Assembly (NCBI GenBank): GCA_035995325.1
Contig: DASYKN010000055.1
Coordinates: forward strand, 13,753 to 77,752
From: Solirubrobacterales bacterium
GTDB lineage: Bacteria > Actinomycetota > Thermoleophilia > Solirubrobacterales > 70-9
Direction: 5' to 3'
DNA length: 64,000 nucleotides
In this document: positions 18,812 to 36,124 of the stretch, one piece after another
Layout: each line of letters begins with the position of its first letter
Numbering within the stretch: position 1 is the first letter of the stretch
The notes under the pieces: model-generated
Seen by the model: the letters and a program-made list of their open reading frames with translations, nothing else
Told to the model about the DNA's origin: nothing
Databases searched by the model: none
Translations under genes and position numbers: made by a program

Positions 18812-18815
18812 GGGC

Positions 18816-20471: not shown

Positions 20472-20522
20472 GCTGCGAGCCAAGTGGGAGCCGTTCGGGC
20501 CCCCGCCCGGCTTTCCGCACCG

Positions 20523-22044: not shown

Positions 22045-22053
22045 AGCCGGCCG

Positions 22054-22824
22054 CTACCTCCGTGAAGTGCTCGCTGGCCAAGCGGCTGCCTGGCGTAGTT
22101 TGCCGAGGGCGCGGTCCTCCAGCTGTCTGACCCGCTCCACGCTGAGGTCGAACTCCCGGCCGATCTCGCGCAGCGTCCGCTGCCGGCAGTCAATCCCGTA
22201 ATGAGCGAAGACGATGCGGCGCTCGCGCTCCTCGAGGCCGGCGGCGAGATCCTGGATATGCTCCCCGCCGGCCAGATCGACGATCCGTTCGTAGTCCTCC
22301 TCGGTGGCCGGATCGGCGAGTCGCTCGACGAAGGTCGTCGCCATCTCCTCGTCGCCGGGAAGTCGCGCCTGCAGGCTGCTCGGGGCGCGCTCGACCGAGA
22401 TCAGATGCTGGATCTGGTCCAGCGGCATTTTCGTACTCTCGGCGAGCTCGGAGTCGGAAGGCTCACGCCGGTTCGCCTGGGCGAAGGCGGATCGCGCCCG
22501 CTTCATCTGGACGAGACTGCGGGTGGCTCGGTCGGAGAGGACGACGGGGCTGGTCAGCTCGGCGACGAGCTGCTGCATCGCCTGCCGAACCCACCACGAC
22601 GCGTAAGCCCAGAACGGCGTCTCGTAACGCTGGTCATAGCGCCGCGCGGCGCGCAGCAGGCCGACCACCCCCTCCTGCTGGAGCTCCCGGCGCTCGAGGC
22701 TGGCAAAGCTCCGGTAGAGGTTCGCGACTCCGTTGATCGCCGGCATAAAGGCCGTCACCAATTCCTCGGTGGCGGTTCGGTCACCGGCCTCGGTCAGGGC
22801 GAGAAGGTGGCGCTCTCGGGCCAT
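22054..22824 (-). CDS. RNA polymerase sigma factor, group 3 (SigB/SigF-like)
   Basis: Region 2: DLQQEGVVGLLRAARRYD...FWAYASWWVRQAM. Region 4: RRIVFAHYG...RTLREIGREFDLSVERVRQLEDRAL. Start at the ATG at 22824. Confidence 0.85.
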   Translation of the reverse strand: MARERHLLALTEAGDRTATEELVTAFMPAINGVANLYRSFASLERRELQQEGVVGLLRAARRYDQRYETPFWAYASWWVRQAMQQLVAELTSPVVLSDRATRSLVQMKRARSAFAQANRREPSDSELAESTKMPLDQIQHLISVERAPSSLQARLPGDEEMATTFVERLADPATEEDYERIVDLAGGEHIQDLAAGLEERERRIVFAHYGIDCRQRTLREIGREFDLSVERVRQLEDRALGKLRQAAAWPASTSRR

Positions 22825-22929
22825 AGGGAGAGGCGAGCTCGCTGGATGCGCCTGGTCGCGCAATGCGCCTTCTTCCGGTGTGTTGCAGTCGGCTGACCGA
22901 ACAGCTCCGGATCACCTTAGACCATAGAT

Positions 22930-23031
22930 CGCCACCCCGATACCCCTTAAAACGCCACCCCGGTACCCCCTTTAAATCCCCTTCAAGAGGCTGCCTAAAC
23001 CTCTTGACGCCAGCCTTTGCCGACCTACCAG
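22930..23031 (+). promoter_or_regulatory. dnaK upstream control region: tandem 22-24-bp direct repeats, an inverted repeat overlapping a TTGACG -35-like box, and a TACCAG box
   Basis: Direct repeats cgccaccccgataccccttaaa (22930-22951) and cgccaccccggtaccccctttaaa (22953-22976). Inverted repeat TCAAGAGG-N9-CCTCTTGA at 22983-23007. TTGACG at 23004-23009 and TACCAG at 23026-23031. Confidence 0.45.
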
Positions 23032-23085
23032 GAGGTGTGAAAGCCCGCGAACGGCCCGGACGCCCGGGCTCGAGAGGAGGCCACG

Positions 23086-24966
23086 ATGGCAAAGGCTGTC
23101 GGAATTGACCTCGGCACGACCAACTCGGTGGTCGCCGCAACGTTGGAGGGCGGACAGGCCGAGGTGATCCCAAACTCCGAGGGCTCACGGACGACGCCAT
23201 CGGTGGTCGCCTTCACTGAGGACAGCGAGCGGTTGGTCGGTCAGATCGCCAAACGCCAGGCGATCCTCAATGCCGAGGCGACCATCTACTCCGCCAAGCG
23301 CTTCATCGGCCGCAAGTGGGGCGAGGTCGACGAGGAGGCGAAAATCGTCTCCTACAAGGTGGTCAAAGGCGAGAACGACGCGGTTCGCTTTGAAGTCCGC
23401 GGCAGGCAACACGCGCCGGAGGAGATCTCCGCACAGGTGCTGCGCAAGCTCGCCGACGACGCGGCCAAGTTCCTCGGCGAAAAAGTCACCGAGGCGGTGA
23501 TCACCGTGCCCGCCTACTTCAACGACTCACAGCGGCAGGCGACCAAAGACGCAGGCAAAATTGCCGGCCTCGAGGTGCTGCGGATCATCAACGAGCCGAC
23601 CGCGGCCGCCCTCGCCTACGGCCTCGACAAGAAAGGCTCCGAGACGGTCCTCGTCTTCGATCTCGGCGGCGGCACCTTCGATGTCTCGCTGCTGGAAGTC
23701 GGCGACGGCGTGATCGAGGTTCGCTCGACCAGCGGTGACGGTCATCTTGGCGGCGACGACTTCGACAAACGGGTGGTCGACTGGCTGGCCGACGAATTCA
23801 AGAAGGACCAGGGAATCGACCTGGCGGCGGATCCCCAGGCCCTGCAGCGCCTCTTCGAGGCCGCCGAGCGGGCGAAGATCGAGCTCTCCTCGACCACCCA
23901 GACGCAGATCAACCTGCCGTACATCACCGCCGACGCGGCGGGCCCGAAACACCTCAACATCACGCTCGCCCGGTCGAAGTTCGAGCAGCTGGTCGAGGAT
24001 CTGATCGCCCGCACCCGTGGGCCGGTCGAACAGGCGCTGAAAGACGCCGGCCTCAGCGCCGACGACATCGACGAGGTGATCCTGGTCGGCGGCTCGACCC
24101 GGATCCCGAAAGTCCAGGACCTGGTGCGCAAACTGACCGGCGGCAAGGACCCGAACCAGACGGTCAATCCGGACGAGGTAGTGGCGATCGGGGCCGCCCT
24201 GCAGGCCGGGGTGCTGAAAGGCGAGGTCGAGGACGTCGTCCTGCTCGACGTCACCCCGCTCTCGCTCGGGCTGGAGACGATGGGCGGCGTGATGACGAAA
24301 GTCATCGAGCGCAACACGACGATCCCAGCCCGGCGGACCGAGGTCTTCTCCACCGCCGAGGACAACCAGACCGCGGTCGACGTCGTCGTCCTCCAGGGCG
24401 AGCGCGAGATGGCCCGCGACAATCGGCAGCTGGCCAAATTCCGGCTCGAAGGAATCCGGCCGGCGCCCCGCGGCGAGCCGCAGGTCGAGGTCACCTTCGA
24501 CATCGACGCGAACGGCATTCTCAACGTCTCTGCGCGCGACAAAGACACCGGTGCCGAACAGCAGGTGACGATCACCGAAACGACCAACCTCGACAGCTCC
24601 GACATCGAGCGGATGATCAAGGAGGCCGAAGAACACGCGGCCGAAGACCGCCAGCAGCGCGAAGAAGTCGACGCCCGCAACGAGCTCGACGCCTTCGCCC
24701 ATCGGGTCGAGCGGCAGCTCGAGGAGCTTGGCGATCGGGTGCCGGTCAACCAGAAGGAACAGGCCGAGGCGCTGGTCCGCGACGCGCGGGGAGCGATCGA
24801 GGAGCAAGCCGGTCTCGACCGTGCGCGGCCGCTGATCTCCGACCTGCAGCAGATGGTTCAGGCGCTGCAGAGTGCCGGTGTGACTGCCGGCCCCCGGGAC
24901 GGCGGCGAGGGTGAGCCCGCGGCCGAGGAGGAGGAAGTCGTCGATGCCGAGTTCACCCGCGAGTGA
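23086..24966 (+). CDS. dnaK: Molecular chaperone DnaK (Hsp70)
   Basis: [22 protein letters not shown] and [14 protein letters not shown] signatures. 626 aa. Confidence 0.97.
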
Positions 24967-25486
24967 AGAGGAGCAACAGGCGGGCCAGGCCGCGGGAGCG
25001 GCGCAGGTGACCAACCAGGAATCAGGCAGCACGCAGCCTCCGCCTCGCGATGACGAGCGTTACCTGCGCGCTCTCGCCGACCTCGAGAACTATCGCAAGC
25101 GCTCGGCGCAGGAAGTGGAGCGGCGGGTCAGCGAACAGGCCGAGCGGCTGCTGCTCGACTGGATCGAGGCGGTGGACAGCGTCGACCGAGCACTGGGGAT
25201 GCAGCCCTCCGACGGGCTGCGCAGAGTCCTCGAGCAGATGGAGGGGATCCTTGCCCGGCAGGGCGTCGCGCGGGTGGGCGCCGTGGGCGATCGCTTCGAT
25301 CCCGAGCTGCACGAGGCGATCTCCGTTCAGGAGAGCGACGAGGTCCCCGACCGCACCGTGCTCGACGTCGCCCGCTCGGGCTATCGCCACAGCGAGCGGG
25401 TGCTGCGCCCGGCCCAGGTGGTGGTTTCGCGGCACGGCGGCGGCTCAGAGCAAAAGCGGAAGCCCAGCGAAGAAAGGAAGGACTGA
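24944..25486 (+). CDS. grpE: Nucleotide exchange factor GrpE
   Basis: [12 protein letters not shown]...[12 protein letters not shown]. The ATG at 24944 overlaps the dnaK 3' end. Confidence 0.9.
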
Positions 25487-26395
25487 TTGGCAGTCGGCTT
25501 TCGCGATTACTACGAGTTACTGGGCGTCCCCCGCGGCGCCGGCGACGAGGAGATCCGCAGCGCCTACCGCAAGCTCGCGCGCGAATTTCATCCGGACGTC
25601 AACAAGGATCCCGACGCCGAGGACCGCTTCAAAGAGGTCTCGGAGGCCTACGAGGTCCTGCGCGACCCCGAGAAACGGGAGAAATACGAACGCCTCGGGA
25701 CGAACTGGAAAGCCGGTGAGGACGTCAGCGGCGCCTCCGGGTTCGGTGGGGGCTTCGGGGGCGGCGACGGCAAGGGATTCGGCGACGCCGCCGGCTTCAG
25801 CGACTTCTTCGAGAGCTTCTTCGGCGGCCGGCGAGGGCCCCCCCGGGGCTTCGATGGCTTCTCGATGCGGGGCGGTGACCAAGAGGCGACGCTCGAGGTC
25901 ACGCTCGAGGAAGCGGCCCGTGGTGGCAAACAGAGCATCTCGCTCCCCGACGGTCGCGATTTCGAGGTGCAGATCCCGCCCGGCGTCCGCGACGGTCAGA
26001 AAATCCGTCTCGCCGGGCAACGCGGGGAAGGGGCGAGCGGCGGTCCGGCGGGGGACCTCTACCTGCGGGTGCGGATCAAACCCCACCCGCGCTTCCGCCG
26101 CGAAGACGACGACCTCGTGGTCGAGGTCCCGGTCGCGCCCTGGGAGGCGGCGCTCGGGGCCACGGTTCCCGTCCCCACCCTCCACGGCAACGCTAAAGTC
26201 AAAGTTCCGGCCGGCTCCTCCAGCGGCCGCCGTTTGCGACTGAGAGGCGAGGGGATGTCGGGCCCCGGCCGGCGCAAGGGCGATCTCTACGCAAGCGTCA
26301 GGATCGTGGTTCCTAAGGTCCTCGAGAAACGCGAGCGCGAGCTGTTCGAGGAGCTGGCCGCGGTCTCGCGGTTCGACCCGAGGCAGGGGCGCTGA
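25487..26395 (+). CDS. cbpA: J-domain co-chaperone without a zinc-finger domain (CbpA-like DnaJ)
   Basis: DYYELLGVPRGAGDEEIRSAYRKLAREFHPDVNKD, a G/F-rich linker and C-terminal substrate-binding domains. No CxxCxGxG repeats. TTG start. Confidence 0.85.
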   Translation: MAVGFRDYYELLGVPRGAGDEEIRSAYRKLAREFHPDVNKDPDAEDRFKEVSEAYEVLRDPEKREKYERLGTNWKAGEDVSGASGFGGGFGGGDGKGFGDAAGFSDFFESFFGGRRGPPRGFDGFSMRGGDQEATLEVTLEEAARGGKQSISLPDGRDFEVQIPPGVRDGQKIRLAGQRGEGASGGPAGDLYLRVRIKPHPRFRREDDDLVVEVPVAPWEAALGATVPVPTLHGNAKVKVPAGSSSGRRLRLRGEGMSGPGRRKGDLYASVRIVVPKVLEKRERELFEELAAVSRFDPRQGR

Positions 26396-26640
26396 TGTCG
26401 CCTGGCACGGCCCTCATCCTCGCCGACGCCCGGGTGCTCGCCCGCCGCTCTGGCCTGCACCCCGACTTGGTGCGGCGGCTGGTCGCGCTCGACGCCGTCG
26501 ACCCCCTCGACTGGGACGCCGCGGCGCGCCTCGCGCGCCTGGTGCGGCTGCGCCACGACCTCGGCCTCAACGTCGCCGGCGCGGCGCTCGCCTGTGACCT
26601 GCTGATGCGGATCGAGGAGCTGGAAGCGCGGCGGCCCTAG
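26395..26640 (+). CDS. cbpM: MerR_2-type chaperone modulator (CbpM/HspR-like)
   Basis: 81 aa. SGLHPDLVRRLVALDAVDP ... RLRHDLGLNVAGAALACDLLMRIEELE. ATGA-type overlap with the cbpA stop. Confidence 0.7.
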   Translation: MSPGTALILADARVLARRSGLHPDLVRRLVALDAVDPLDWDAAARLARLVRLRHDLGLNVAGAALACDLLMRIEELEARRP

Positions 26641-26656
26641 GCGCCCTGCGATAGCC

Positions 26657-27712
26657 ATGGCTGCGGTAAAGCTCGGGCTGATCGTCTCGCCGGCAATCGA
26701 CCAGCTGGCGGTGGACGAGCTGGCGGCCGACCTCGGCGCCGCTCTGGCCGAGCGCTACCCCGAGGTCGAGTGGGAGCTGGAGGTCCTCACCGACTTGTTG
26801 GCCGAGCCGCCGGCACACTTGACCGAACTCGTCTCCGCGGCCCGTCGCCTTCTGCTCGACGCCGACTGGGACCTGGCGGTGGCGGTCACCGAGCTGCCCC
26901 TGCGACTCGCTCACCGGACGTTGCTCAGCCATGCCAGCCGCACCCACGGCGTCGCGTTGGTCTCGCTACCGGCGCTCGGCGTCCTGAGGCGCCGCCGACG
27001 CCTCCACGACGTCGTCGCCGACGCGGTCGGGACGCTGGTTGGCGATCCGGTGCGCGGCCGCGCCTCCCAGTCCGCCGCCGCTCGGCTCGGAGTCGAGCGC
27101 CGCCTCGCCGAGCTGGCTGGCGAGGTCGACGACGGGGGCGCCGCCTACGTCGCCCGGGTGATCGGCGGCAACTTGCGGCTGTTGGCCGGGATGGTTGGCG
27201 CCAATCACCCCTGGCGGCTGGTCGGGCGGCTTTGGCGGGCGATGCTGGCGGCGGTTGCGGCTGTCGCCTTCGGCTTGATCCAGATCGAAGTCTGGAAAAT
27301 CGCCGCAACCCTCGGGCCGCTGCGACTGGCGCTCGCCGCCCTCGCCTCGATCGCCGCCGCCTCAGTGACGTTGATCGCCGGCCACCGCCTCTGGGAGCGC
27401 GCACCCGACCCTCGCGTGCGCGAGCAGGTGACGCTGTTCAACCTGGCGACCACCGCAACGGTCGTGTTCGGAATCATCGCGCTCTACTTCTTCGTGTTCG
27501 TCGCCAGCCTCGTTGCCGCCCTGCTGCTGATCGAACCGTCGCTTCTCTCGCAAGCGCTTGGGCGAGACACGGACGTCTGGGATTACGTGCGCCTCGCCTG
27601 GCTCTCGACCGCCCTGGGGACGATTGGCGGCGCCCTGGGGGCGACCTTGGAGACCGACGAGGCGGTCAGCGAGGCCGCCTACACGTACCGACCGACGAGC
27701 GCCCGCGAGTGA
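26657..27712 (+). CDS. Hypothetical integral membrane protein
   Basis: A soluble N-terminal half is followed by about four hydrophobic helices (WRAMLAAVAAVAFGLIQIEVW, LALAALASIAAASVTLIAG, VVFGIIALYFFVFVASLVAALLLI, WLSTALGTIGGALGA). Confidence 0.6.
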   Translation: MAAVKLGLIVSPAIDQLAVDELAADLGAALAERYPEVEWELEVLTDLLAEPPAHLTELVSAARRLLLDADWDLAVAVTELPLRLAHRTLLSHASRTHGVALVSLPALGVLRRRRRLHDVVADAVGTLVGDPVRGRASQSAAARLGVERRLAELAGEVDDGGAAYVARVIGGNLRLLAGMVGANHPWRLVGRLWRAMLAAVAAVAFGLIQIEVWKIAATLGPLRLALAALASIAAASVTLIAGHRLWERAPDPRVREQVTLFNLATTATVVFGIIALYFFVFVASLVAALLLIEPSLLSQALGRDTDVWDYVRLAWLSTALGTIGGALGATLETDEAVSEAAYTYRPTSARE

Positions 27713-27734
27713 TAGCGCGCCGATTCGAGCTGAG

Positions 27735-29162
27735 CTAGCCCAGGGCGTCGCGGATCGGCGCGTCGGCCGGCGTGATCGCGATCAGCTTGCGATTGGCGAA
27801 CTCGAGGATCCCGAGGTGGGAGAGCTCGCGCCCGAAGCCGGAGCGCTTGGCTCCGCCGAAGGGAAGGGTCGGCTCCGAGGCGGTCGGGTGGTTCACGAAG
27901 ACCATCCCGGCCTCGAGCCGGTCGGCCACCGCCTGGGTGCGCTCGCCGTCGCTGCCGAACACCGCCCCGCCGAGCCCGTACTGCGAGCCGTTGGCGAGGG
28001 CGATCGCCTGCTCGTCCGACTCGACCCGGTACACGGCAGCCACCGGACCGAACAGCTCCTCGTGGTAGGCGCGCATCTCAGGGGTGACGTCGACCAGGAT
28101 CGTCGGCTCGACGAAGGCGCCCGGCCGGTCGATGCGGCGGCCGCCGGTCACCACGCCGGCGCCCTTCTCGATCGCCTCGTCGACCTGCTCGATCGCCAGC
28201 TCGGCCGCCCGCTCGGAGGAGAGCGGCGCCAGCGTCGTCCTCTCGTCGAACGGGTCGCCGGGTTCGAGCTCGGCCATCCGTTCGGCAAGGCCGTCGAGGA
28301 AGTCTTGGAAGACGTCGGCCATCACGATCATCCGCTTGGCGCTGGTGCAGACCTGGCCCATGTTGTGCATCCGCCCGACGAACGCCGCCTCCACGGTGCG
28401 CTCGAGGTTGGCGCCGTCGAGGACGATGAAGGGGTCGCTACCACCGAGCTCGAGCACCGCCTTCTTGACGGCGCGCCCGGCCTCCTCGCCCAAGGCGGAG
28501 CCGGCCCGGTCGCTGCCGGTCAGCGAGCAGCCCTGCACGAGCGGGCTCTCGACCATCCGCGCGATGTCCTCCACCTCGACGAAGACGTTGGTGAAGACGC
28601 CCTCGGGAGCACCGGCATCTGCGAACAGCGCCTCGATCGCCAGGGCGGATTGGGGCACGCTCCGCGCGTGCTTGAGCAGGATCGTGTTGCCGAGCACCAG
28701 ATTCGGGGCGCTGATCCGGATCGCCTGGTAGGCGGGGAAGTTCCAAGGCTGCACGGTCAGCAGGACCCCGAGCGGCTCGGTGCGGATGAGCGCCGAGCCC
28801 TCGTCGTCCATCTCCAGCGGCTGATCGGCGATCTGCGCCGGGCCCTTCTGCGCGTAGTACTCGAGGATTCGGATCGTCAGGTCCAACTCCGCCCGGCTAT
28901 GGCGGATCAGCTTCCCCATCTCGAGCGTAATCGTCCGCGCCAGCTCCTCGTAGTGCTTCCGCATCAGCAGCGCCGCGCGCCCGACGATCCCGGCCCGCTC
29001 CGCCGCCCCCCGTTCTCGCCACGGCCCCGACGCGCGCTGGGCCCGCTCCATGACCCGATCGATCTCCTCGCCGCGCAGCGACGGGAACTCCCGCACGACC
29101 TCGTTGGTGTACGGGTTGACGGTCGCGAAGCTGCTGCGGGCGCCTGCCTTGGTATGAGCCAT
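27735..29162 (-). CDS. NAD(P)-dependent aldehyde dehydrogenase (succinate-semialdehyde dehydrogenase-like)
   Basis: [22 protein letters not shown] (catalytic Cys) and EELFGPV motifs. Start at the ATG at 29162. Confidence 0.9.
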
Positions 29163-29213
29163 CGTCAGGGGCGTTGGTAGGCCACTCGCGCCGCCGGTCA
29201 ACCGCTGCGCCTC

Positions 29214-29777
29214 CTACGCCCGCAGCGCGGAGATGTCGATTCGCACCGCAACCTGCTCGCCGACCAGCAGCCCGCCGCCGACAAGCGACTGCTGCCAGGT
29301 GAGACCGAACTCGGTCCGGTCGATCGAGCCGCGGACCGCGACGCCGACGCGATCGTTGCCCCAGGGGTCGACGGCTGCGCCTTCGACGTTGGCCTCAACC
29401 TGGATCTCGCGGGTGACGTCCTTGATCGTCAGGTTGCCGGTGACCCGGTAGCTCCCGAGCACGACGTGCTCGATCGCGGTCGACTCGAACGTGATCGACG
29501 GCCAGCGCTCGGCGTCGAAGAAGTCCGGCCCCAGAAGGTGTTCATCGCGGTCGGCGTTGTTGGTGTCGATCGAGGCGACCTGGACGCTGCCCCAGACCCG
29601 CGAGTCGTGGTAGTCCTCGGCCGCCTCCAGCGTCCCCTCGTACTGTTTGAAGTGGCCGCGGACGGTGGAGATCATCATGTGCTTAACCTCGAAGCCGACG
29701 CTGGAGTGGATCGGGTCGACCCTCCAGGTACCGGTCGGCACCCGCACGATTCCCTGTTCGGTCTGCAGCTGGGTCAT
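29214..29777 (-). CDS. YceI family periplasmic polyisoprenoid-binding-like protein
   Basis: WRVDPIHSSVGFEVKHMMISTVRGHF...DTNNADRDEHL...LTIKDVTREI. Confidence 0.85.
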   Translation of the reverse strand: MTQLQTEQGIVRVPTGTWRVDPIHSSVGFEVKHMMISTVRGHFKQYEGTLEAAEDYHDSRVWGSVQVASIDTNNADRDEHLLGPDFFDAERWPSITFESTAIEHVVLGSYRVTGNLTIKDVTREIQVEANVEGAAVDPWGNDRVGVAVRGSIDRTEFGLTWQQSLVGGGLLVGEQVAVRIDISALRA

Positions 29778-29925
29778 TGGAGTTGCTCCTTGTCGGTTAG
29801 GTACTCGTACCGCCGTTCCGCAACGTCCCTCGCCGACCGGGGGCGACGCAAACGATCGCTGCGTAGGGCGCCCATGTTGCTTTTCCGGTAGGCCGCCGCG
29901 GCGCTTCTGTCAACGGGCGGAATCG

Positions 29926-30099
29926 ACGGGAATCGGCGTCAATCCCCGCATATCCAGGCCATTTCGGGAACTAGTTCCCGAAATGCGGGGATAGGAGGCG
30001 ATGGTTAAGTTTCCCCCTGGAGAGCGAAGCTGCCCGTTTGCAGGGGGTGTGGGTAAGTGGAGCTAGGCGGATTCGAACCGCCGACCTCCTGGGTGCGAT
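29926..30099. repeat. Repeat copy C: full flank F (132 nt) plus a 42-nt 3' fragment of tRNA-Ala(CGC)
   Basis: Near-identical by eye to 35919-36093. Contains the 24-bp perfect palindrome ATTTCGGGAACTAGTTCCCGAAAT at 29961-29984. Confidence 0.9.
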
Positions 30100-30198
30100 T
30101 CAAGGTGGCAGGCTAGGATTTCTACTTCAATAAAGCGCTTCTTTACAGGGAATTTCTAGTCCTATGCCGGGAGCATCGAGCGACGATTCTCGCGCCAA

Positions 30199-30261
30199 AT
30201 ATGCGCGGATATGCGGCGATGTGATCCGAGTCGGGAACTTCTAGCGAGAAGTTCCCGAAAT
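30199..30261. repeat. Conserved cassette-proximal block with an interrupted palindrome
   Basis: atatgcgcggatatgcggcgatgtgatccgagTCGGGAACTTctagcgagAAGTTCCCGAaat. This is the paralogue of 15020-15082. Confidence 0.85.
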
Positions 30262-30332
30262 CGCAGAGGCCGGTTCAAGACTTCCGAGCGGCCGGCGAGA
30301 GTCGACTCAGCCTGTCGCGCTCTTACGCATGA

Positions 30333-32690
30333 CTAAACAACGCCGTCGGACTCCCCGGTGAGCAGCCACTCCCGCAGGTCCACCAAGAAGGCGTAGTCCT
30401 CTTCGCTGATCGCGCCTCCGTGGGAGACTTCGTTTCGGATCGGGTTGAGACGCTTGATCCAGTCCAGGCGGTTTTTCCAGGTACCGGAGAGATCCTCGTC
30501 TTCGGGTCGCGTGTAGCGAGCGGCGAAGCGGCTTTCCCAGACCGCGTTGGTGCAGGACTTGATCACCTCGTAGTAGTCGACGATGTACATCATGTCCCAG
30601 CCGCCCACCTGTTCTGACGGGTCGAGGTCGAGGTTCTTCTCAATCGCCCGCTCGGCGCTCTCCTTGCGGACCTTGCGCGGGATCCCGAGGCGTTCCCAGT
30701 CTTTGCCGTGCTCGTCCTCGAGCCGCTCGCGGATGTCCTTCTTGAAGAAGGCCTCAAGGTCGCCGACGATCTCCCGGGCCTGGTTGGTGTACTGCTTGTC
30801 CTGGGCTTTTTCCCACTCATCGAGGCCCGGGGCTTTGAAGTTGGGCCGCGCCGCGCGCACCGCCTGCTGGAGCTTTCGATAGTACTTCGAGCCGGCGCCC
30901 GAGCCGTAGTTCGTGCGGTATTCGACGCCCTCCTCGCGGCTCAGCCCCTCGAGGTGGTCTACCAGCGAGTCCAGGTAGGGGCGACAGGCCTCGACCATTT
31001 CCCCGGTGCTGGTGCTGAGTGGATTAACTCCCTCGTCCTCGATCACGGTTTCGACGATGTCGCTGAGCACCCGCAGGAGCGCCTCAACCCCGTTATTCAT
31101 GAAGACGAAGCCGCCCTCGGCGCTGCCGTACTGCCATTGCGCGGGCAGCCCCTCTTTGAGGATCTCGAAGCTGGCCTCGAGGAACGGCGTTAGGAGGTCG
31201 GCGGTCGGCTGGTTGTCACCTGCGTAGAAGGTGCCCACCTTTTTCGCACCCGCTTTCGTGAAGCTGCCGATGAAGTTTCCGCGCCGCAGACCGTTGTCGA
31301 TCGCGTCGATCGTGATCGACCTCGTGTGCGTTTTGGCGTTCTCACCGATGATCATCCGGTCAAAGAGCGGCGAGGACTTCTGCTCGCCGAGGTGCTGGGC
31401 GATCCTCAGGCGCAGGGCCTTTGCGCGCTGGCGGTAGTCGTCTGAAGCCCAGAGCAGGTCCGAGTTCAGCGTGTTCCGCAGGTTCTTGGGAACCGCCTGC
31501 TGGTTCTCGTTGATCTGCATGAAGAGGCGAACCTGCTCCTCTCTCGGCAGGTCGACGAAGGCGACGACCGGGACCAGGTCGGTCTCGGTCCGGCTTGAGT
31601 CGGCGTACCCGTAGAGGCGATGCTGTCCGTCGATGACGTAGGCGGCCCGATAGGTCTGCGGCAGGTGCAGGAGCCCAATTTTCGAGGGCCCGGGCGATTT
31701 CGGAGCGAGGTCGAACTGCAGCCCACCTCTCCTTTTCCCGGTTTCGATGTTGAGGATGATCGAGTTCGGGAAGAAGCCACCCCCCTCGACGAACTCGGCG
31801 ACCTTTCTCAGGCGCGATTTCTTGATCAGCCGCTGATAGGTGGGCATCAGCGCGCTGTTGGCTTGGTTTCGGTGCAGCACGTAGGACATCTTCAGCAGGC
31901 GCGCGGGCTCGATCGCGAAGGAGAAGTAGGTGTAACCGCCCATCGAGCCGCGGATCGCCGGCACTTCCGGCTCGAGGTTCGGGATCCTCGTCCCGGCGAA
32001 CAACGCGCCGAGCAGCTGGTATTTCGCGGCGGCCCCCAGGTGCTCTGCCAGCCGCAGGTAGTACTCGACCGTGTCCTCGTCGACGTGGAAGATTTGGGCG
32101 CCCTCGACACGCTCTTTGACCTGCGCGGAGAGGGTGTAGTTGTTAGTCGCGAGCAGGAAGCGGATCTTGTGGTCGGGGTACTCTTCTTTAACCCGCCGGA
32201 CGATCCCCTGCCGCCGTCCCGAGATCGCCTCGACCTCCTTCTTGAACTGCCCGGGGCGGATCGTCTCAGAGGATTTGCACTCGATCAGCAGCACTGACTC
32301 CTCATCGGCCGCGAATACGTCGATTTGCTGCTTTGCGCTCGCCGCCGCCCCGTAGCTCAGCTTGAAAGAGCCGTCGCGATTCAGGTGCGGGAACTGCAGC
32401 TGCGCGCACATCGCCCAGACGCGGTCCTCGAAGGCTCGCTCGTGGCGCTTCTCGCGCCGCATTTTGGTCCGGATTTTCAGCTCCTTCTCGACAACCCAGC
32501 CGTCGGCTTCGTAGGCCTCGACCTTCGCCTTCGAAATCGTCTCGAAGGCGTGGGGCAGAAGCCGCTTCCGCGTCTCGCCTTTGATTTTGTTGAACGCCAG
32601 GAGGTGATCGCTGATTGCCTCCCCGGGAACCCAGATCGCCTTCGTCTCCGTTTTCGCGTTTGCCTCCGCTTCCGTCTCGGCCCTCGCCAT
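30333..32690 (-). CDS. Three-domain protein: N-terminal PD-(D/E)xK nuclease-like, central DGQHR (DndB/ParB-like) and C-terminal HEPN (Rx4H) domains
   Basis: QQIDVFAADEESVLLIECKSS (D...ExK). AYVIDGQHRLYGY and FMQINENQQAV (DGQHR/DndB signatures). C-terminal LNPIRNEVSHGG (HEPN R-x4-H). The start codon shares one base with the MTase stop (TGATG). Confidence 0.75.
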   Translation of the reverse strand: MARAETEAEANAKTETKAIWVPGEAISDHLLAFNKIKGETRKRLLPHAFETISKAKVEAYEADGWVVEKELKIRTKMRREKRHERAFEDRVWAMCAQLQFPHLNRDGSFKLSYGAAASAKQQIDVFAADEESVLLIECKSSETIRPGQFKKEVEAISGRRQGIVRRVKEEYPDHKIRFLLATNNYTLSAQVKERVEGAQIFHVDEDTVEYYLRLAEHLGAAAKYQLLGALFAGTRIPNLEPEVPAIRGSMGGYTYFSFAIEPARLLKMSYVLHRNQANSALMPTYQRLIKKSRLRKVAEFVEGGGFFPNSIILNIETGKRRGGLQFDLAPKSPGPSKIGLLHLPQTYRAAYVIDGQHRLYGYADSSRTETDLVPVVAFVDLPREEQVRLFMQINENQQAVPKNLRNTLNSDLLWASDDYRQRAKALRLRIAQHLGEQKSSPLFDRMIIGENAKTHTRSITIDAIDNGLRRGNFIGSFTKAGAKKVGTFYAGDNQPTADLLTPFLEASFEILKEGLPAQWQYGSAEGGFVFMNNGVEALLRVLSDIVETVIEDEGVNPLSTSTGEMVEACRPYLDSLVDHLEGLSREEGVEYRTNYGSGAGSKYYRKLQQAVRAARPNFKAPGLDEWEKAQDKQYTNQAREIVGDLEAFFKKDIRERLEDEHGKDWERLGIPRKVRKESAERAIEKNLDLDPSEQVGGWDMMYIVDYYEVIKSCTNAVWESRFAARYTRPEDEDLSGTWKNRLDWIKRLNPIRNEVSHGGAISEEDYAFLVDLREWLLTGESDGVV

Positions 32691-33532
32691 CAGCCGGCCG
32701 TCTCCAGGTTCGTGAAAAGAAGCTCTTTCGCGCTGCCCCGTATTGCGTTCGCTCCCCCCACCGAGTTGCGTCGGCTGGTCTTGATCACCGAGTCACCCTT
32801 GTCGAACAGCTCGATGATCGAGTCGTGCGCCGCGTTGGCGAGGATGTAGTGGGCGTCGCGCTCCTTGATCTCATCAACTAGCTTGCTGAGGCGGCGCTGG
32901 TCCTCAAAGGAAAAAAGCCGCTGGTTGTACTTCACGAATCCGTTTTCATTGTGGGCGACCGTGTAGGGGGGGTCGAGGAAGACCAAGTCCCCGGCGCCTA
33001 CCCGGTCGATGCACTTGGCGAAGTCGCTGGCTTTCAGGGTGGCCTGCTCCAGTCGAGAGGCCACCGCCCGCAGCTGCTCTGCGGTAGGGATGTGGGCGAT
33101 CCGCTCGCCGCCAAAGGGCACGTTGTAGGTCCCTGCCAGGTTGACGCGGTAGATGCCGTTGAACGAGGTGTGGTTCAGGTAGAGGAAGCGAGCGGCGCTC
33201 TCGATCAACCCGCCCGGAACCGATGCCCTGACCTTGTAGTAGGTCTCTTCATCGCGGGCGTACGCCCGGGCTTTGTTGGCGACCCGGGTCGGGTGATCCC
33301 TGATCGCCTCGAAGGCGGAGATCAGCTCCACGTTGGTATCGCTGAGGTGAGCTTTCGAGAACGGGCCCAGAGCCAGAAAAACCGAGGCGCCGCCCAGGAA
33401 GGGCTCGTGATAGGCGGCGATCTCGGTCTCGCCGACCAGCTTTCTTAGCTTCGGGATCAGCCACCGCTTGCCGCCGACCCACCGCAGCGGCGAGGCCACC
33501 GACGCAGTCGTCTCGCTCGCCCCCGTCGTCAC
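32690..33532 (-). CDS. Dam-like (D12 class) N6-adenine DNA methyltransferase
   Basis: PLRWVGGKRWL, HEPFLGGASVF (motif I) and VFLDPPYTV (motif IV, DPPY). GTG start at 33532 chosen inside ORF 32690..33637 (alternative at 33541). Confidence 0.85.
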   Translation of the reverse strand: MTTGASETTASVASPLRWVGGKRWLIPKLRKLVGETEIAAYHEPFLGGASVFLALGPFSKAHLSDTNVELISAFEAIRDHPTRVANKARAYARDEETYYKVRASVPGGLIESAARFLYLNHTSFNGIYRVNLAGTYNVPFGGERIAHIPTAEQLRAVASRLEQATLKASDFAKCIDRVGAGDLVFLDPPYTVAHNENGFVKYNQRLFSFEDQRRLSKLVDEIKERDAHYILANAAHDSIIELFDKGDSVIKTSRRNSVGGANAIRGSAKELLFTNLETAG

Positions 33533-33645
33533 CGGTGCAACCCTATCGTCGTGAGTTGTACGTCGTAAGTGCCGTCCATTACTCAGATGGAACCGCGTAC
33601 GTGGCAAACGCGGCCCCGGTGAGTGACAGGGAGGCACCGAGGATC

Positions 33646-33762
33646 ATCGACGGTCGTTGGCTGCTCGGCCCGCCGGCAGGCGATGGTGGGATGTCCGAGG
33701 TCTACCGTGCCACCGACATCGATCACGAGTACGGGCCGCTGGCGCTGAAGCTCCTGCCGGCC
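33646..33762 (+). pseudogene. Ser/Thr protein kinase N-terminal fragment (remnant)
   Basis: IDGRWLLGPPAGDGGMSEVYRATDIDHEYGPLALKLLPA resembles a Gly-rich loop plus the VAIK-type lysine region. No catalytic-loop motifs follow in any frame. Confidence 0.3.
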
Positions 33763-33929
33763 CCGCGTCAGGAGGGACCGGTGGGCGGTCAAGGAGCTGG
33801 TCGATGGGGTCTGCCACTTCGTCGAGCTCGCGGAGCCAGTCGACTAGGCCGAGCGGAGTGGTCGTCGCGGCCATCGCGACGCCTTCCGGGATGATCTGCC
33901 GTTAATTGGTTCATCCAAGGATGAAGACA

Positions 33930-34019
33930 AGGCATTCCGGCGTCAATCGTGAAGCCGTCTTTTGCGGGAGGCTTGAGTGGAGCTAGGCGGATTCGAACCG
34001 CCGACCTCCTGGGTGCGAT
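33930..34019. repeat. Repeat copy D: internally deleted flank F (about 48 nt) plus a 42-nt tRNA-Ala(CGC) 3' fragment
   Basis: ggcattccggcgtcaatcg...gaagccgtcttttgcgggaggcttgag followed by tggagctaggcggattcgaaccgccgacctcctgggtgcgat. Confidence 0.85.
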
Positions 34020-34231
34020 TCGGGTGGCGTCTAGGAACTTCCTCATCGCCCTGATGATCGGGCGCGACGACGATCCACTTCTAGCAACGCTGCCAGGGAT
34101 CGGACGCTGGTATGTGGACGTCGCTCGCCCGTGGGTCTGTTGAGACTTCCCGCAAACAGGGGGTCGTCCGCTCAGATCTAGATTATCCAGGCGCTACCTT
34201 TCGTCCTGTGACGAGGCTAAGATACGAACAT

Positions 34232-35137
34232 ATGTTCGATAAAGAGACGCTTGTGAGCACTAGGGAGCGCGCGGCGATACTCGCGCTGATGGCGCGGCGG
34301 AAAGTCGAGTGGAACCGTCTCGCCGGCGCCATCGAGGAGGCGGGAAGCGCCCTCGCCTTGCTCGGAAAGATGGACGCAAGTCAAGACGCCCGTCTGTTCG
34401 AGGTTGAAACAGCCCAGGTGACCCTGGATCAGCTCGAGGAACGCGTGATCTCCTACGAACACGAAGGCATCCGGCTGATAACCGTCCTCGATGCCAGCTA
34501 TCCGATGAATCTGCGGATGGTCCACGATCGGCCCCCGGCACTCTTTGTTCGAGGCGAGCTGAGTCCAGCCGACGAGCGCTCTGCAGCGGTGGTCGGCAGT
34601 CGCAAAGCCTCACCGGAGGGGCTCGAAAAGGCCTCCGAGATCGTGCGAGATCTCGTTGCCCATGACTACGTCGTCTTCAGTGGTCTTGCCGCTGGCATAG
34701 ATACCGCCGCTCATGAGGCCGCCTTGGCGGCGGGGGGGCGCACGGTGGCAGTCATCGGCACCGGCCTGCGACACCACTTCCCGAAGCAGAACGCGGATCT
34801 GCAGGATCGACTTTGCCGGGAGAGCGCGGTCGTTTCCCAGTTCTGGCCGGGTCAAGAACCGCGGCGCTGGACGTTTCCCCAGAGGAACGCCGTGATGTCT
34901 GGTCTGGCCCGCGCCACCATCGTCGTTGAGGCCGGTAACAAGAGTGGGGCGCGCATGCAGGCTCGGTTGGCGATCGAGCACGGACGACCTGTCTTCCTGC
35001 TGCGCTCGCTATTGCGCCATCAGTGGGCACAGACGTACGCCAGTGAGCGGCCCGGTACCTATGTCGTGGAGACGGGCGAAGAGATTTTGCGGCACCTTGA
35101 GCGGCTTTACGCCGACGAGCTCGTCCTCACCGCTTAA
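34232..35137 (+). CDS. DprA/Smf-like (SLOG superfamily) protein
   Basis: AVVGSRKASPEGLEKA...VVFSGLAAGIDTAAHEAAL...TVAVIGTGL...FPQRNAVMSGLARATIVVEAGNKSGA is the DprA Rossmann core. Start at the ATG at 34232. Confidence 0.8.
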   Translation: MFDKETLVSTRERAAILALMARRKVEWNRLAGAIEEAGSALALLGKMDASQDARLFEVETAQVTLDQLEERVISYEHEGIRLITVLDASYPMNLRMVHDRPPALFVRGELSPADERSAAVVGSRKASPEGLEKASEIVRDLVAHDYVVFSGLAAGIDTAAHEAALAAGGRTVAVIGTGLRHHFPKQNADLQDRLCRESAVVSQFWPGQEPRRWTFPQRNAVMSGLARATIVVEAGNKSGARMQARLAIEHGRPVFLLRSLLRHQWAQTYASERPGTYVVETGEEILRHLERLYADELVLTA

Positions 35138-35147
35138 TCTCTAGCCG

Positions 35148-35897
35148 ATGGCGGTTGGGGTCGATGAGGCCAGCGAGGCGTATGAGCGCGCGATGCGCAA
35201 CATTGCCACTGTCGGTCCAGGCATTTGCCGGATCTGCCGGACTTTCATAGATCCTGGATATGACACCTGCTACCCGTGCGGCTTTGAGCCCGACAACCTC
35301 GCTGCGGTGGTCCCGATCACCTACAGCGAGAACCTTGGACAGGTGCATACGGCGCTTCGCAACTACAAGGATGGCGAGAGCAACGCAATCCGCCGACATG
35401 CTGCCGTTCGGCTCGCGGCGATCCTCTGGCGCTTTCTCCGCGAGCACGAGGCCTGTGTTGCAGGTGCCGCAGGCGTGGACAAATTCGACCTCGTCACGAT
35501 CATCCCATCCAGCAGCCCACAGCGAGACGAGCACTCCGCCTTCCGTGAGTTGACCAGTTGGATCGAGCCCGCCAGCTCACGGATGCGCCGGACTCTGGAG
35601 CCGACTGGCAAGGTCGAAGAGAGAGGGTTTGATCCCGACCGTTTCAGTTCCACCACTGAGCTACCTGGCAAGTCTGTGCTGCTCCTTGACGATACCTGGA
35701 CTACTGGCGGCCATGCGCGGTCTGCCTCTTACTCTCTACTCGCAGCCGGTGCCGCCACCGTCTCGCTGGTAGTGGTCGGCCGCCATGTCAACGGTGACTA
35801 CGAACCAGCTAAAGGCAGTGGCGAGAGCTGCACCGATCTCCTCGATGCGCTTCCCGAGGACTTCGATTGGGCCACTTGCGCCGTTCACGCCACTTAG
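35148..35897 (+). CDS. ComF-like phosphoribosyltransferase-fold protein with an N-terminal zinc finger
   Basis: CRICRTFIDPGYDTCYPCG zinc finger. PRPP-loop-like VLLLDDTWTTGGHARSA. Starts 11 nt after the dprA-like stop. Confidence 0.75.
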   Translation: MAVGVDEASEAYERAMRNIATVGPGICRICRTFIDPGYDTCYPCGFEPDNLAAVVPITYSENLGQVHTALRNYKDGESNAIRRHAAVRLAAILWRFLREHEACVAGAAGVDKFDLVTIIPSSSPQRDEHSAFRELTSWIEPASSRMRRTLEPTGKVEERGFDPDRFSSTTELPGKSVLLLDDTWTTGGHARSASYSLLAAGAATVSLVVVGRHVNGDYEPAKGSGESCTDLLDALPEDFDWATCAVHAT

Positions 35898-35918
35898 CTC
35901 CGCCGCCCCCGAAAGCGA

Positions 35919-36051
35919 GGCGGAATCGGCGTCAATCCCCGCGTATCCAGGCCATTTCGGGAACTAGTTCCCGAAATGAGGGGGATAGGAGGCGATGGTT
36001 CAAGTTCCCCCTGGAGAGCGAAGTTGCCCGTTTGCAGGGGGTGTCGGTGAG
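35919..36051. repeat. Flank F copy E, directly abutting the 3' end of the intact tRNA-Ala(CGC)
   Basis: Near-identical by eye to 29926-30057. Palindrome ATTTCGGGAACTAGTTCCCGAAAT at 35954-35977. Confidence 0.9.
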
Positions 36052-36124
36052 TGGAGCTAGGCGGATTCGAACCGCCGACCTCCTGGGTGCGATCCAGGCG
36101 CTCTGCCAGCTGAGCTATAGCCCC
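36052..36124 (-). tRNA. tRNA-Ala (anticodon CGC)
   Basis: The reverse complement is GGGGCTATAGCTCAGCTGGCAGAGCGCCTGGATCGCACCCAGGAGGTCGGCGGTTCGAATCCGCCTAGCTCCA. It folds as a cloverleaf with a G3:U70 pair, anticodon loop AUCGCAC and a GTTCGAATC T-loop. Confidence 0.95.

Follow-up and report, generated by a model that had tools for sequence, protein, structure and literature searches.

Organization of the array at tRNA-Ala(CGC)

Downstream of a tRNA-Ala(CGC) gene of an uncultured soil actinobacterium (Solirubrobacterales) lies a 21-kb stack of small islands with anti-phage cargo, which occupies positions 14813-36124 of the window, that is, the whole 64,000-nucleotide stretch that we analyzed (Table 1). 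The stack is punctuated by four exact copies of the 3' part of the tRNA, all in one orientation and ending at the anticodon loop, with the repeat extending from anticodon-loop position 32 to the tRNA 3' end. A preceding sequence-only reading of this DNA had reported 42-nt tRNA fragments, and the exact 42-mer is indeed present at 30058-30099, 33978-34019 and 36052-36093, with 0 occurrences expected by chance. The extent of the stack, given there as approximately 6 kb, was underestimated: the terminal fragment J0, which has half of the flanking sequence F to its left and a P arm to its right, was missed, and so was the junction remnant at 17091-17156. Because junctions are located at 14879-14923 and 17091-17156, a third low-GC two-gene cassette (14924-17090) can be delineated beyond the two recognized originally. 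The lower GC content ascribed to the modules was confirmed by measurement (0.60-0.65, compared to 0.70-0.74 in the backbone). The TGGAG at 17152, within the remnant, corresponds to the last 5 nt of a tRNA fragment, and a 165-aa ORF ends directly at the half P' arm of the outer boundary. The arrangement is identical in three samples, with no excision or variation visible within this population, a point against the explanation favored below.

Table 1. Features of the tRNA-Ala(CGC) array, with positions in the window
Feature	Position	Strand	Evidence and remarks
Half P' arm	14813-14878	+	From older lost unit; F profile 14822-14871, E 7e-4
J0, terminal tRNA 3' fragment	14879-14923	+	45 nt exact
P arm of C0	14924-15102	+	P profile, E 9e-35
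C0 cargo	15364-17035	+	ORFs of 381 aa and 172 aa; GC 0.61-0.62
Junction remnant	17091-17156	+	tRNA-proximal half of C0 P' arm plus TGGAG; sequence, weak F profile match 17095-17139
Unit X	17157-29925	.	12.8 kb, backbone-like GC; JGI gene calls with Pfam
F1	29926-30056	+	Full-length P' arm of older unit X; F profile 29916-30046, E 1e-24
J1, tRNA 3' fragment	30057-30099	+	43 nt exact
P arm of C1	30100-30309	+	P profile, E 3e-37
C1 cargo span	30333-33532	-	
DGQHR/DndB-domain protein, 785 aa	30333-32690	-	NCBIfam DGQHR, 146.8 bits, above cutoff; also Pfam, PADLOC
Dam-family adenine methyltransferase	32690-33532	-	NCBIfam dam, 184 bits, above cutoff; also Pfam, PADLOC
Likely Ser/Thr kinase N-terminal fragment in C1	~33637-33760 (approximate)	+	NCBIfam PknB_PASTA_kin, E 2.9e-4
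F2 remnant	33930-33976	+	C1 P' arm minus ~85 nt internally; alignment by eye
J2, tRNA 3' fragment	33977-34019	+	43 nt exact
C2 distal non-coding end	34020-34111, maybe to ~34231	+	Expected P arm position
C2 cargo span	34112-35897	+	
ShosA (DprA/SLOG-like)	34112-35137	+	PADLOC, 5.6e-68; Pfam DNA_processg_A, 9.5e-62
ShosT (phosphoribosyltransferase-like)	35148-35897	+	PADLOC, 2.2e-9
F3	35919-36050	+	P' arm of newest islet C2; F profile 35895-36042, E 1e-26
Intact tRNA-Ala(CGC)	36051-36124	-	ARAGORN; Rfam, 66.9 bits
att core (tRNA positions 32-74)	36051-36093		attL end of array

Cargo genes and the search for an integrase

The unit nearest to the tRNA gene (C2) carries the genes for ShosA and ShosT, and C1 encodes a restriction-modification-like pair that consists of a Dam methyltransferase and a DGQHR protein. 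C1 also likely contains a kinase gene fragment, a sign of deletional decay: residues 35-74 of the ORF at 33535-33894 match profile positions 2-40 of the NCBIfam kinase model, whereas a Pfam search with the same ORF produced no match. The two ORFs of C0 show no match in Pfam, PADLOC or NCBIfam. Unit X encodes STAS, a cNMP-binding oxidoreductase, HSP20, MEDS-HATPase, a sigma factor, dnaK-grpE-dnaJ-hspR, an aldehyde dehydrogenase and YceI; it is flanked by F1 and the 17091-17156 remnant, its distal att end having been deleted. Comparison with the related locus L097 places native flanking DNA to the left of 14813, so that unit X lies inside the array. The host-like GC content of unit X and the presence of the dnaK operon are unusual for an island, an observation that counts against the explanation favored below.

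The sequence-only reading held that the units lack a recombinase and carry conflict genes, and both claims are borne out: no recombinase was found in the 6 kb that it covered, and no integrase or integrase fragment in positions 2519-48226 of the window. A check for a degraded integrase inside the cassettes was likewise negative, and no integrase pseudogene fragments were detected in the window or in 12 bounded islands from other loci.

Two conserved arms flank the tRNA fragment

Flank F is the P' arm of the attachment site of an integrative element rather than chromosomal sequence. It was brought in by the element because it is absent at the outermost fragments, namely in six loci that also hold an intact tRNA (L090, L097, L144, L165, L166 and L167) as well as in L122, and is also absent in the relatives L004 and L005. 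The shared flank of more than 130 nt had been considered incompatible with an att model; on the contrary, an element-borne P' arm is expected beside each fragment, and the duplication exceeds 130 nt because tandem stacking re-creates an attP-like F-core-P sequence at internal junctions. F3 contains a hairpin beside the tRNA, together with a GGTT(C/G)AA box and the palindrome CATTTCGGGAACTAGTTCCCGAAATG. F1 and F3, described as near-identical, are 94-97% identical, whereas the internally deleted F proposed at 33930-33976 is plausible by eye but is not matched by the F profile.

On the other side of the fragment, the P arm of C1 contains the hairpin CGGGAACTTCTAGCGAGAAGTTCCCG and a GGTTCAAG box in addition to repeats of the GGATATGC type. 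The homology between 30199-30261 and 15020-15082 that had been suspected amounts to 95% identity, with 34 nt exact (15028-15061). Across 24 junctions, the P arm is conserved, with three GGATATGC-type repeats and a hairpin with compensatory changes, in which 92% of the cells are paired and 5 pairs are changed on both sides (covariation score of 0.199 compared to 0.090 in shuffles, with 0 of 500 shuffles reaching the observed value). At the expected position in C2 (34020-34111), there was no P profile match at E<10, and blastn retrieved only copies of the same contig (L001/L002) and nothing from related genomes; thus, this P arm is either degenerate or of another type. The alternative end of this region, at ~34231, is where the ShosA gene (301 aa) begins in the JGI call. 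Within the 64 kb, profile matches to F and the P arm were confined to junctions, that is, the repeats occur at cassette boundaries only.

Each islet in the window retains only one recognizable arm, and therefore single islets are probably no longer excisable. A composite such as that of C2 and C1 could still be excised, with the tRNA and F3 as attL and the P arm at 30100 together with J1 as attR.

Related loci in Solirubrobacterales

The locus comprising tRNA-Ala(CGC), the acidic protein gene and an ABC transporter is orthologous in approximately 60 metagenome or MAG loci (66-85% nucleotide identity), each with different DNA downstream of the tRNA. Both the number of cassettes and their cargo were found to vary greatly between related genomes. 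This comparison was one of three that the sequence-only reading had named as able to refute it, and like the other two, on repeats away from cassette boundaries and on a degraded integrase, it came out in favor of that reading. The same arms surround unrelated cargo, mostly defense or toxin-antitoxin genes, and almost none of these loci contain an integrase. An F-like arm adjoins 40 of the 42 intact tRNAs, a count that is biased, as are all counts for F but not those for the P arm, because the loci were chosen by the F palindrome. In 10 of the 12 bounded integrase-less islands, both arms are at or near full length. Modules are common to several islands, with AbiE located beside the P arm and HicAB beside F.

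The cargo spreads horizontally. Between L097 and L148, it is 99.8% identical, compared to 69% for the host flank; between L144 and L165, the third codon positions of the cargo are 95-98% identical, compared to 79% in the host ABC gene. Because hosts that are about 30% different in their flanks carry near-identical cargo, integrase-less islets do move. In L097, an additional integrase-less island of 6.7 kb, its two arms intact, separates the tRNA from a unit that in L148 lies directly next to the tRNA, and a ~590-nt deletion has removed most of an F; in L003, an IS110 element is inserted in the P arm. In the L144/L165 pair, identity is 95% in the cargo but only 75% in the P arm and roughly 80% in the part of F nearest to the tRNA, a divergence of the arms that is not predicted by transfer of whole elements through attP.

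Among the approximately 60 loci, only L117 has an integrase inside an F-bearing unit at tRNA-Ala, in the order tRNA, F, an ORF, an HTH_3 regulator, a 129-aa ORF and the integrase N-terminus, where the locus is cut by the contig end. In L087, a tyrosine integrase (PF00589, 4e-13) is followed by a tRNA-Gly fragment and an F-like arm, and the P arm beside the integrase is not of the family type. Thus, an integrase acting on this tRNA-Ala site was nowhere seen in full, which also counts against the favored explanation.

A model for the origin of the array

The array belongs to a known type, the accretion array, and it was most likely built by tyrosine integrases from islets resembling cis-mobilizable elements (CIMEs). 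Under this model, circular integrative elements of one family, each with an attP of ~400 bp (~200 nt of P arm, 43 nt copied from tRNA-Ala(CGC) positions 32-74 and ~130-170 nt of the P' arm F), would have inserted successively into the intact tRNA gene through a lambda-type tyrosine integrase, with crossover at the anticodon loop. Each insertion would rebuild the tRNA from the copy in the element, set F beside it and push older units outward, and therefore the internal junctions would read F of the older unit, fragment, P arm of the newer unit. The newest unit would accordingly lie nearest to the tRNA. The integrase was presumably lost by deletion or supplied in trans, and the units that now lack it would be CIME-like islets kept for their cargo, namely ShosTA, the Dam methyltransferase and DGQHR pair, the unknown gene pair and the stress-gene block. 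The sequence-only reading anticipated much of this scheme: the four exact copies end where it placed the crossover of a tyrosine integrase, the chemistry that we infer for this site, and its insertion of circles carrying F and the tRNA fragment has the correct topology.

An alternative that differs from this explanation only in the present-day mobility of the units is an active satellite or cassette system, in which the conserved arms of non-autonomous islets serve an integrase encoded elsewhere, by a rare helper or at another locus. This possibility, which we regard as less likely than not, is suggested by the nearly full-length arms of most integrase-less islands, by the conservation of the arms around unrelated cargo and the covariation of the hairpin, by the rarity of integrases near F (L117 at tRNA-Ala and L087 at tRNA-Gly), by near-identical integrase-less cargo in hosts ~30% apart, and by the extra island of L097. 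Yet no helper integrase was identified for this genome, no circular or empty-site junctions were seen, every islet in the window has one damaged arm, the arms of L144/L165 did not travel with the cargo, and the sampling of loci is biased to intact F. The converse scenario, in which every unit came in with an integrase of its own that was later deleted, leaving the unit as an immobile relic, appears rather unlikely: it accounts for the arm deletions in the window (the F2 remnant and the half F at 17091 and 14813), the missing distal end of X, which is the position of the integrase as judged from L117 and L087, the kinase gene fragment in C1, the deletion through F in L097 and the IS110 insertion in L003, but not for the lack of integrase pseudogene fragments, the clean absence of the integrase next to usually intact arms, or the very recent sharing of integrase-less cargo by divergent hosts.

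About as improbable, in our estimate, is homologous recombination, with the 74 nt of the identical tRNA, the 43-nt fragments and conserved stretches of the arms serving as short anchors for RecA, and DNA from other strains swapping or adding cargo by Campbell insertion or double crossover. Such exchange would fit the L144/L165 pair, in which high identity stops within the arms, just past the P arm box and the F palindrome, and the arms track the host; the shared AbiE and HicAB modules and the similarity of the F copies in the window, which is compatible with gene conversion, point in the same direction. However, it leaves unexplained the origin of the anticodon-loop boundary and of the 400-bp arm architecture, the outermost junctions without F offer just 43 nt of homology, an identity of 69% between host flanks is too low for ordinary recombination, and integrase-bearing relatives exist. 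Finally, the 3' region of the tRNA could have been multiplied by local segmental duplication or unequal crossing-over, with unrelated DNA later acquired between the repeats. Direct repeats in one orientation with highly similar F copies would result; the comparative data from related loci make this origin very unlikely because dozens of genomes have these arms around different cargo at the orthologous site, and moreover, the inter-repeat units are unrelated to each other and foreign in GC content, and the anticodon loop is the exact end point of the repeat.

Relationship to known systems

The closest known pattern is the site-specific accretion of CIME-type elements, as in ICESt1/ICESt3 of Streptococcus thermophilus, where integration and transfer genes are lost, attL and attR are kept, and composite excision is possible. 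The array described here differs in its target, tRNA-Ala(CGC) of uncultured Solirubrobacterales, in the very small size of the units (2-9 kb) with mostly defense or toxin-antitoxin cargo, and in the predominance of the integrase-less state across the whole clade. Pseudo-SCC and composite SCC islands at rlmH (orfX) of staphylococci similarly consist of recombinase-less units with att direct repeats in tandem at one site, and pseudo-SCC units can be excised by a recombinase from another unit; unlike the present array, SCC elements employ serine recombinases (Ccr), a protein-coding target gene and short att repeats without long arms.

The tycheposons of Prochlorococcus islands are cargo elements at tRNA genes, flanked by full and partial tRNAs, in which successive integrations push older elements deeper into the island and leave degenerate remnants and scattered partial tRNAs, as is the case here (10.1101/2020.12.28.424599). 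As defined, however, tycheposons encode an integrase and often a replication module (10.1101/2020.12.28.424599), both of which are lacking in the units described here, whose defining common feature is the pair of long, conserved arms, P and P'. The tRNA-linked defense hotspots of E. coli are also small variable islands at dedicated sites, with unclear means of movement, but they usually retain an integrase ('integrase-only') (PMC10121019), whereas the units here retain att sites only. The comparison with integrons made in the sequence-only reading holds as an analogy, given the small, promoterless-looking cassettes without their own recombinase, the orientation-defined array at one site and the palindromic sequences at cassette ends, but not in the machinery: no resident integrase gene, attI or Pc promoter adjoins the array, crossover has left a duplicated 43-nt segment of the tRNA rather than an attC, and the arms resemble those of a lambda-type attP with repeated arm-type motifs. 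Should the units nevertheless prove to be active satellites, tRNA-Ala(CGC) would be a dedicated integron-like platform for defense cassettes across the clade.

The tRNA-Ala(CGC) array and its extent

The window contains four exact copies of the 42-nt 3' part of the tRNA-Ala(CGC) gene (at 14880, 30058, 33978 and 36052, with 0 expected by chance). The complete stretches of identity to the tRNA, all in one orientation, are 43 to 45 nt long and therefore run from position 32, the first nucleotide of the anticodon loop, to the 3' end of the gene. As far as can be judged from the sequence, such a boundary is what a tyrosine integrase classically leaves behind in an anticodon loop. The tRNA fragments, their shared flank F (94-97% identity between the copies F1 and F3), the block 30199-30261 that matches 15020-15082 (34 nt exact) and the low-GC modules (GC of 0.60-0.65 compared to 0.70-0.74 in the surroundings), all described in a sequence-only reading of this DNA, were borne out by sequence comparison. 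That reading, which counted three junctions, overlooked a fourth copy of the tRNA fragment (J0), which has the tRNA-proximal half of F to its left and a long conserved block to its right, as well as the remnant of a fifth junction that consists of half of F and TGGAG only; thus, these two junctions delimit a third low-GC two-gene cassette. The window lies on a JGI metagenome contig of 99.5 kb. The whole arrangement recurs at 100% identity in two other metagenome samples, and short Logan contigs, each covering a single cassette, match the window exactly and end inside the repeats, with no alternative junctions.

Coordinates of the array, its units and other features of the window (units are ordered from the tRNA outward; F is denoted the P' arm)
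Feature	Position	Strand	Details	P' arm	P arm
Array	14813-36124
Intact tRNA-Ala(CGC)	36051-36124	minus	ARAGORN, Rfam
F3	35919-36050		copy of F next to the tRNA
J2, tRNA fragment	33977-34019		43 nt identical to the tRNA
P arm right of J1	30100-30309		P profile E 3e-37
J1, tRNA fragment	30057-30099		43 nt identical to the tRNA
F1	29926-30056		copy of F
Junction remnant	17091-17156
P arm right of J0	14924-15102		P profile E 9e-35
J0, tRNA fragment	14879-14923		45 nt identical to the tRNA
Unit C2			predicted ShosTA	intact (F3)	not recognisable
Unit C1			Dam and DGQHR genes	internally deleted	intact
Unit X	17157-29925		dnaK block	intact (F1)	lost along with most of the fragment
Unit C0	14924-17090		gene pair at 15364-17035	half left	intact
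Exo_endo_phos gene	7845-8708
Class-2 lipase gene	10252-10917
TPP riboswitch	52868-52974		Rfam RF00059, 55.9 bits
Low-GC stretch	55303-57623		GC 0.63-0.64
LOG/SLOG-family gene	55305-56015
487-aa ORF	56012-57475		without Pfam match

In L097, one of the loci from related metagenomes and MAGs (all designated by L-numbers), a homologue of the Exo_endo_phos gene of the window (90% amino acid match) is located 1.7 kb past the outermost tRNA fragment. Therefore, the native far flank in the window lies to the left of 14813, and all of the DNA from there to the end of the intact tRNA belongs to the array, which, given this placement, would include the 12.8-kb dnaK block. The lipase gene, which is of low GC (0.615) and is located between the Exo_endo_phos/LigD Prim-Pol genes and a GGDEF gene, may be older foreign DNA outside the recognisable array. 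A separate low-GC stretch lies between the genes for tRNA-Lys(TTT) and tRNA-Val(CAC) and encompasses the LOG/SLOG-family gene and the 487-aa ORF; no tRNA-fragment repeats were found within it.

Arms of the units and an attP-like architecture

A scan of metagenomes for the palindrome contained in F identified 80 loci. In about 60 of these, roughly 70-85 nt separate the palindrome from the 3' end of tRNA-Ala(CGC) or of a 3' fragment thereof, and in 6 the palindrome lies beside tRNA-Gly(GCC); its symmetry is kept while the sequence varies (CGGGAAC/GTTCCCG, CGGGCAC/GTGCCCG, CAGGCAC/GTGCCTG in relatives). The right flanks of the approximately 60 tRNA-Ala loci show 66-85% nucleotide identity to the window, and therefore these loci represent the orthologous site in a broad clade.

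In the search with the F profile, F adjoined 40 of the 42 intact tRNAs. F is missing at the outermost fragment found in seven loci (L090, L097, L144, L165, L166 and L167, all with an intact tRNA, and L122), as well as in L004 and L005, and yet is found beside the intact tRNA, which rules out that F is simply the native flank of the tRNA gene. Because recombination at the core leaves element DNA at the rebuilt tRNA and the original flank at the displaced fragment, F is identified as the P' arm supplied by the element; the copies of F beside internal fragments would then be part of the older neighbouring unit. The objection that a flank of more than 130 nt does not fit an att model, raised from the sequence alone, is thereby removed. 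A dispersed repeat or MITE is ruled out as well because, in the 64 kb, the F and P profiles match at the junctions only; hence the repeats are not ubiquitous dispersed elements, a prospect that had been thought fatal to the cassette interpretation.

The P arm consists of about 200 nt to the right of the fragments that are conserved over 24 junctions and contain, in this order, CCAAGGnGGGCG, ATTTGCAGGG, three GGATATGC-type repeats, a 12-bp hairpin and GGGCGGTTGGAA. The hairpin is kept by compensatory changes: 92% of the cells are paired, five pairs are altered on both sides, and the covariation score is 0.199 compared to 0.090 in shuffles, none of 500 of which reach it, with all slid controls at or below 0.084. 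The motifs of F are an inverted GGATATGC-type repeat, the palindrome and GGCGGTTGGAA; no known RNA family was found in F, the only Rfam matches being tRNAs and the TPP riboswitch. The GGATATGC-type motif is found two to three times as a direct repeat in the P arm and in inverted form in F, and GTTCCCGAAAT is present in both arms. As in lambda-type attP, the core is an imperfect dyad about a short overlap at the anticodon loop: it reads CCTGG-GTGCGAT-CCAGG in the tRNA, and CCTGG-GTGCGAT-(C/T)CAAGG or similar is retained at the junctions. Given that F bears the same kinds of motif as the P arm, F-core-P resembles a lambda-type attP, about 400 bp long, with putative arm-type sites.

F-like arms with the same palindrome are also found downstream of tRNA-Gly(GCC) or its fragment (L099, L111, L115, L126, L129, L159 and L087), and therefore the arm family serves at least two tRNA targets.

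State and cargo of the units in the window

Each of the units in the window has only one recognisable arm, and the cores are still exact. The single units are probably immobile now, whereas a composite that extends from the tRNA and F3 to the P arm at 30100 and J1 would keep a full site pair.

Unit C2 consists of genes for ShosA (PADLOC 5.6e-68) and ShosT (PADLOC 2.2e-9) that are separated by 10 nt; with a DprA-like ShosA encoded beside a phosphoribosyltransferase-like ShosT, the pair is a predicted ShosTA toxin-antitoxin defence system. Unit C1 carries genes for a Dam-family methyltransferase and for a DGQHR/DndB-domain protein of 785 aa, together with a probable N-terminal fragment of a Ser/Thr kinase. 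The C0 pair (381 and 172 aa; GC of 0.61-0.62) showed no match in Pfam, PADLOC or NCBIfam and, because of its position within a defence-rich array, is a candidate new conflict/defence gene pair.

Unit X, the 12.8 kb between F1 and the junction remnant, has a backbone-like GC and carries genes for STAS, sigma factor, MEDS-HATPase and HSP20 proteins, dnaK-grpE-dnaJ-hspR, an aldehyde dehydrogenase and YceI. Its distal end, which is the expected position of the integrase and the P arm as judged from L117 and L087, has been lost except for the last 5 nt of a tRNA fragment. Unit X may have come from a close relative as an old island, or it may be a chromosomal segment that was relocated.

Islands in related loci

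The genomes closest to the window are Solirubrobacterales MAGs. Five MAG loci (L003, L004, L005, L008 and L009) keep the right side, with tRNA-Ala(CGC), the acidic protein, the ABC transporter and tRNA-Ala(TGC), and the DNA downstream of tRNA-Ala(CGC) differs in each of them, in line with the variation that the sequence-only reading had expected. L003 contains a 6.6-kb integrase-less island with genes for a KAP NTPase and a 741-aa protein, the ends of which consist of a tRNA fragment and an F-like arm, with an IS110 element within one arm; L008 retains only a 125-nt remnant from the fragment to the tRNA, and L005 is the locus of this set that carries no F besides L004. In the latter, the insertion at tRNA-Ala(CGC) (2968-8899) encodes a large serine recombinase, Replic_Relax and an FtsK/TraB-like ATPase and resembles an actinomycete integrative conjugative element; this tRNA gene thus appears to be used by unrelated element families as well.

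Twelve islands in other loci are bounded on both sides and span 2.8-8.7 kb. Their cargo includes several kinds of restriction-modification enzymes, AbiE, Fic, DUF6414, DUF6119, SMC-like and MORC-like ATPases and NUDIX, along with some metabolic genes. Both arms are at or near full length in 10 of the 12, and no integrase was detected in any of these islands with a local profile or tblastn. In seven loci (L089, L145, L146, L149, L155, L158 and L160), a HicB-HicA pair, assigned from translations rather than by profile search, is encoded directly beside F (about 470 nt to its left), with 84-91% nucleotide identity.

Search for an integrase

No integrase, excisionase, transposase or relaxase was found among the JGI gene calls with Pfam annotation for window positions 2519-48226, nor by our own Pfam scans of the window that included small intergenic ORFs, and tblastn of the window with three integrase queries produced no match; for two of these queries, the assignment itself came only from weak similarity to the L087 integrase. 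These results uphold the earlier impression that the cassettes contain no integrase. There is no recombinase gene within 12 kb of the array on either side. The ORF 15364-16509 was considered as an integrase and rejected, having no match in Pfam, PADLOC or NCBIfam; an apparent integrase in L123 was dropped as well given that it had no Pfam match and the local profile had been seeded with L123 itself. Scans of a viral collection with the tRNA core and the P arm pattern gave no match, and a scan of the same kind with the L087 integrase retrieved only the query.

Integrases were identified in two other contexts of the arm family. L117 comprises tRNA-Ala, F, a small ORF, a Cro/C1-type HTH regulator, a 129-aa ORF and an integrase N-terminus cut at the contig end that contains a SAM-like domain and a weak match to an arm-binding domain. 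In L087/L088, an IMG/VR contig, a tyrosine integrase gene (PF00589, 4e-13) is followed by a spacer of about 100 nt, a tRNA-Gly(GCC) fragment, a terminator-like hairpin and an F-like arm; the P arm of L087 is not of the family type. With these integrases, the arm family includes candidate autonomous members, the tRNA-Ala one being incomplete. None of the 120 homologues of the L117 integrase N-terminus among the matches listed (P0001-P0120) reaches 275 aa. Of the four contexts examined, three (L210-L212, without a tRNA) have the gene truncated by a contig end, and in L209, adjoining tRNA-Arg, it is split into two ORFs of 258 aa and 146 aa. The short lengths reflect either assemblies that break in integrase genes or a search that favours lengths similar to that of the query.

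Movement of cargo between hosts

Two pairs of loci share closely similar islands. Positions 4921-5339 of L097 and 1-419 of L148 (the L097 coordinates as oriented in the analysis) are 99.76% identical over 419 nt of island DNA, whereas the host genes flanking the tRNA are 69% identical. The shared unit is the first from the tRNA in L148, where it abuts the intact tRNA, and the second, that is, the distal island, in L097, where a further 6.7-kb integrase-less island separates it from the tRNA and most of one F is lost through a deletion of about 590 nt. L144 (3095-6030) and L165 (5135-8070; coordinates as oriented in the analysis) have in common a 2.8-kb island with 95% identical cargo, and identity at third codon positions is 95-98% in the island genes compared to 79% in the host ABC gene. 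As read from such alignments, these comparisons show that integrase-less cargo moves between hosts, and the 99.8% identity of cargo with 69% identical flanks lends indirect support to a possible mobilisation by a helper integrase.

The arms of L144 and L165 are less similar than their cargo (75% identity for the P arm and roughly 80% for the tRNA-proximal F), and the block of high identity ends just past the GGTTGGAA box of the P arm and just past the palindrome of F. These breakpoints do not fit a simple transfer of the whole element through attP. They leave room for homologous exchange at conserved stretches of the arms or for recombination at arm modules, hinting that, in this pair, cargo was exchanged inside the arms rather than at the tRNA core.

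Relationship to known systems and implications

Cis-mobilizable elements (CIMEs) have lost the genes for integration and transfer, keep attL and attR, accumulate as stacks through site-specific accretion and, given a helper, are mobilisable (PMC5704250). The pattern in the window matches their published description (PMC5704250): the units are bounded by attL/attR-type direct repeats that contain the 3' end of the target gene and, within 2519-48226, are free of genes for integrase, excisionase or transfer. Comparable arrays are formed by tycheposons and their remnants at tRNA genes of Prochlorococcus (10.1101/2020.12.28.424599), and the defence hotspots of E. coli (PMC10121019) are a further parallel. 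The initial interpretation of the locus is partly supported: the units at the tRNA gene are recombinase-less, and an integron-like site is no more than an analogy. Integrons are characterized by intI with an adjacent attI and promoter, which the array does not possess, and by folded single-strand attC boundaries, in place of which the array has duplicated tRNA segments, with the arm palindromes lying 70-150 nt from the duplicated core; without a resident integrase and attI, and with tRNA duplications as boundaries, the array is not an integron. The feature is a case of CIME-like accretion, a known process; it comes from a clade that has not been studied, its arms are unusually well defined, and integrase-less units predominate.

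It is conceivable, although we consider it rather doubtful, that a clade of soil Solirubrobacterales uses tRNA-Ala(CGC), and tRNA-Gly(GCC) to a lesser degree, as a platform for cassette exchange. The main mobile form would be integrase-less mini-islands, defined only by a conserved att site of about 400 bp divided between two arms and moved in trans by a rare integrase-bearing helper, with cargo also reshuffled at the palindrome-containing arm modules. If true, the platform would be functionally analogous to an integron for defence genes, with a tRNA gene as its basis, and units moved in trans would provide a clear natural case of non-autonomous integrative cassettes. The F-core-P arm profile of about 400 bp offers a sequence handle for such units and for new candidate defence genes in metagenomes. 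The array reveals how, in a large group of soil actinobacteria that is uncultured, defence genes come together and are exchanged: ShosTA, variants of restriction-modification, AbiE, HicAB and gene pairs of unknown function travel in att-bearing, recombinase-less units of 2-9 kb that land at one tRNA gene.
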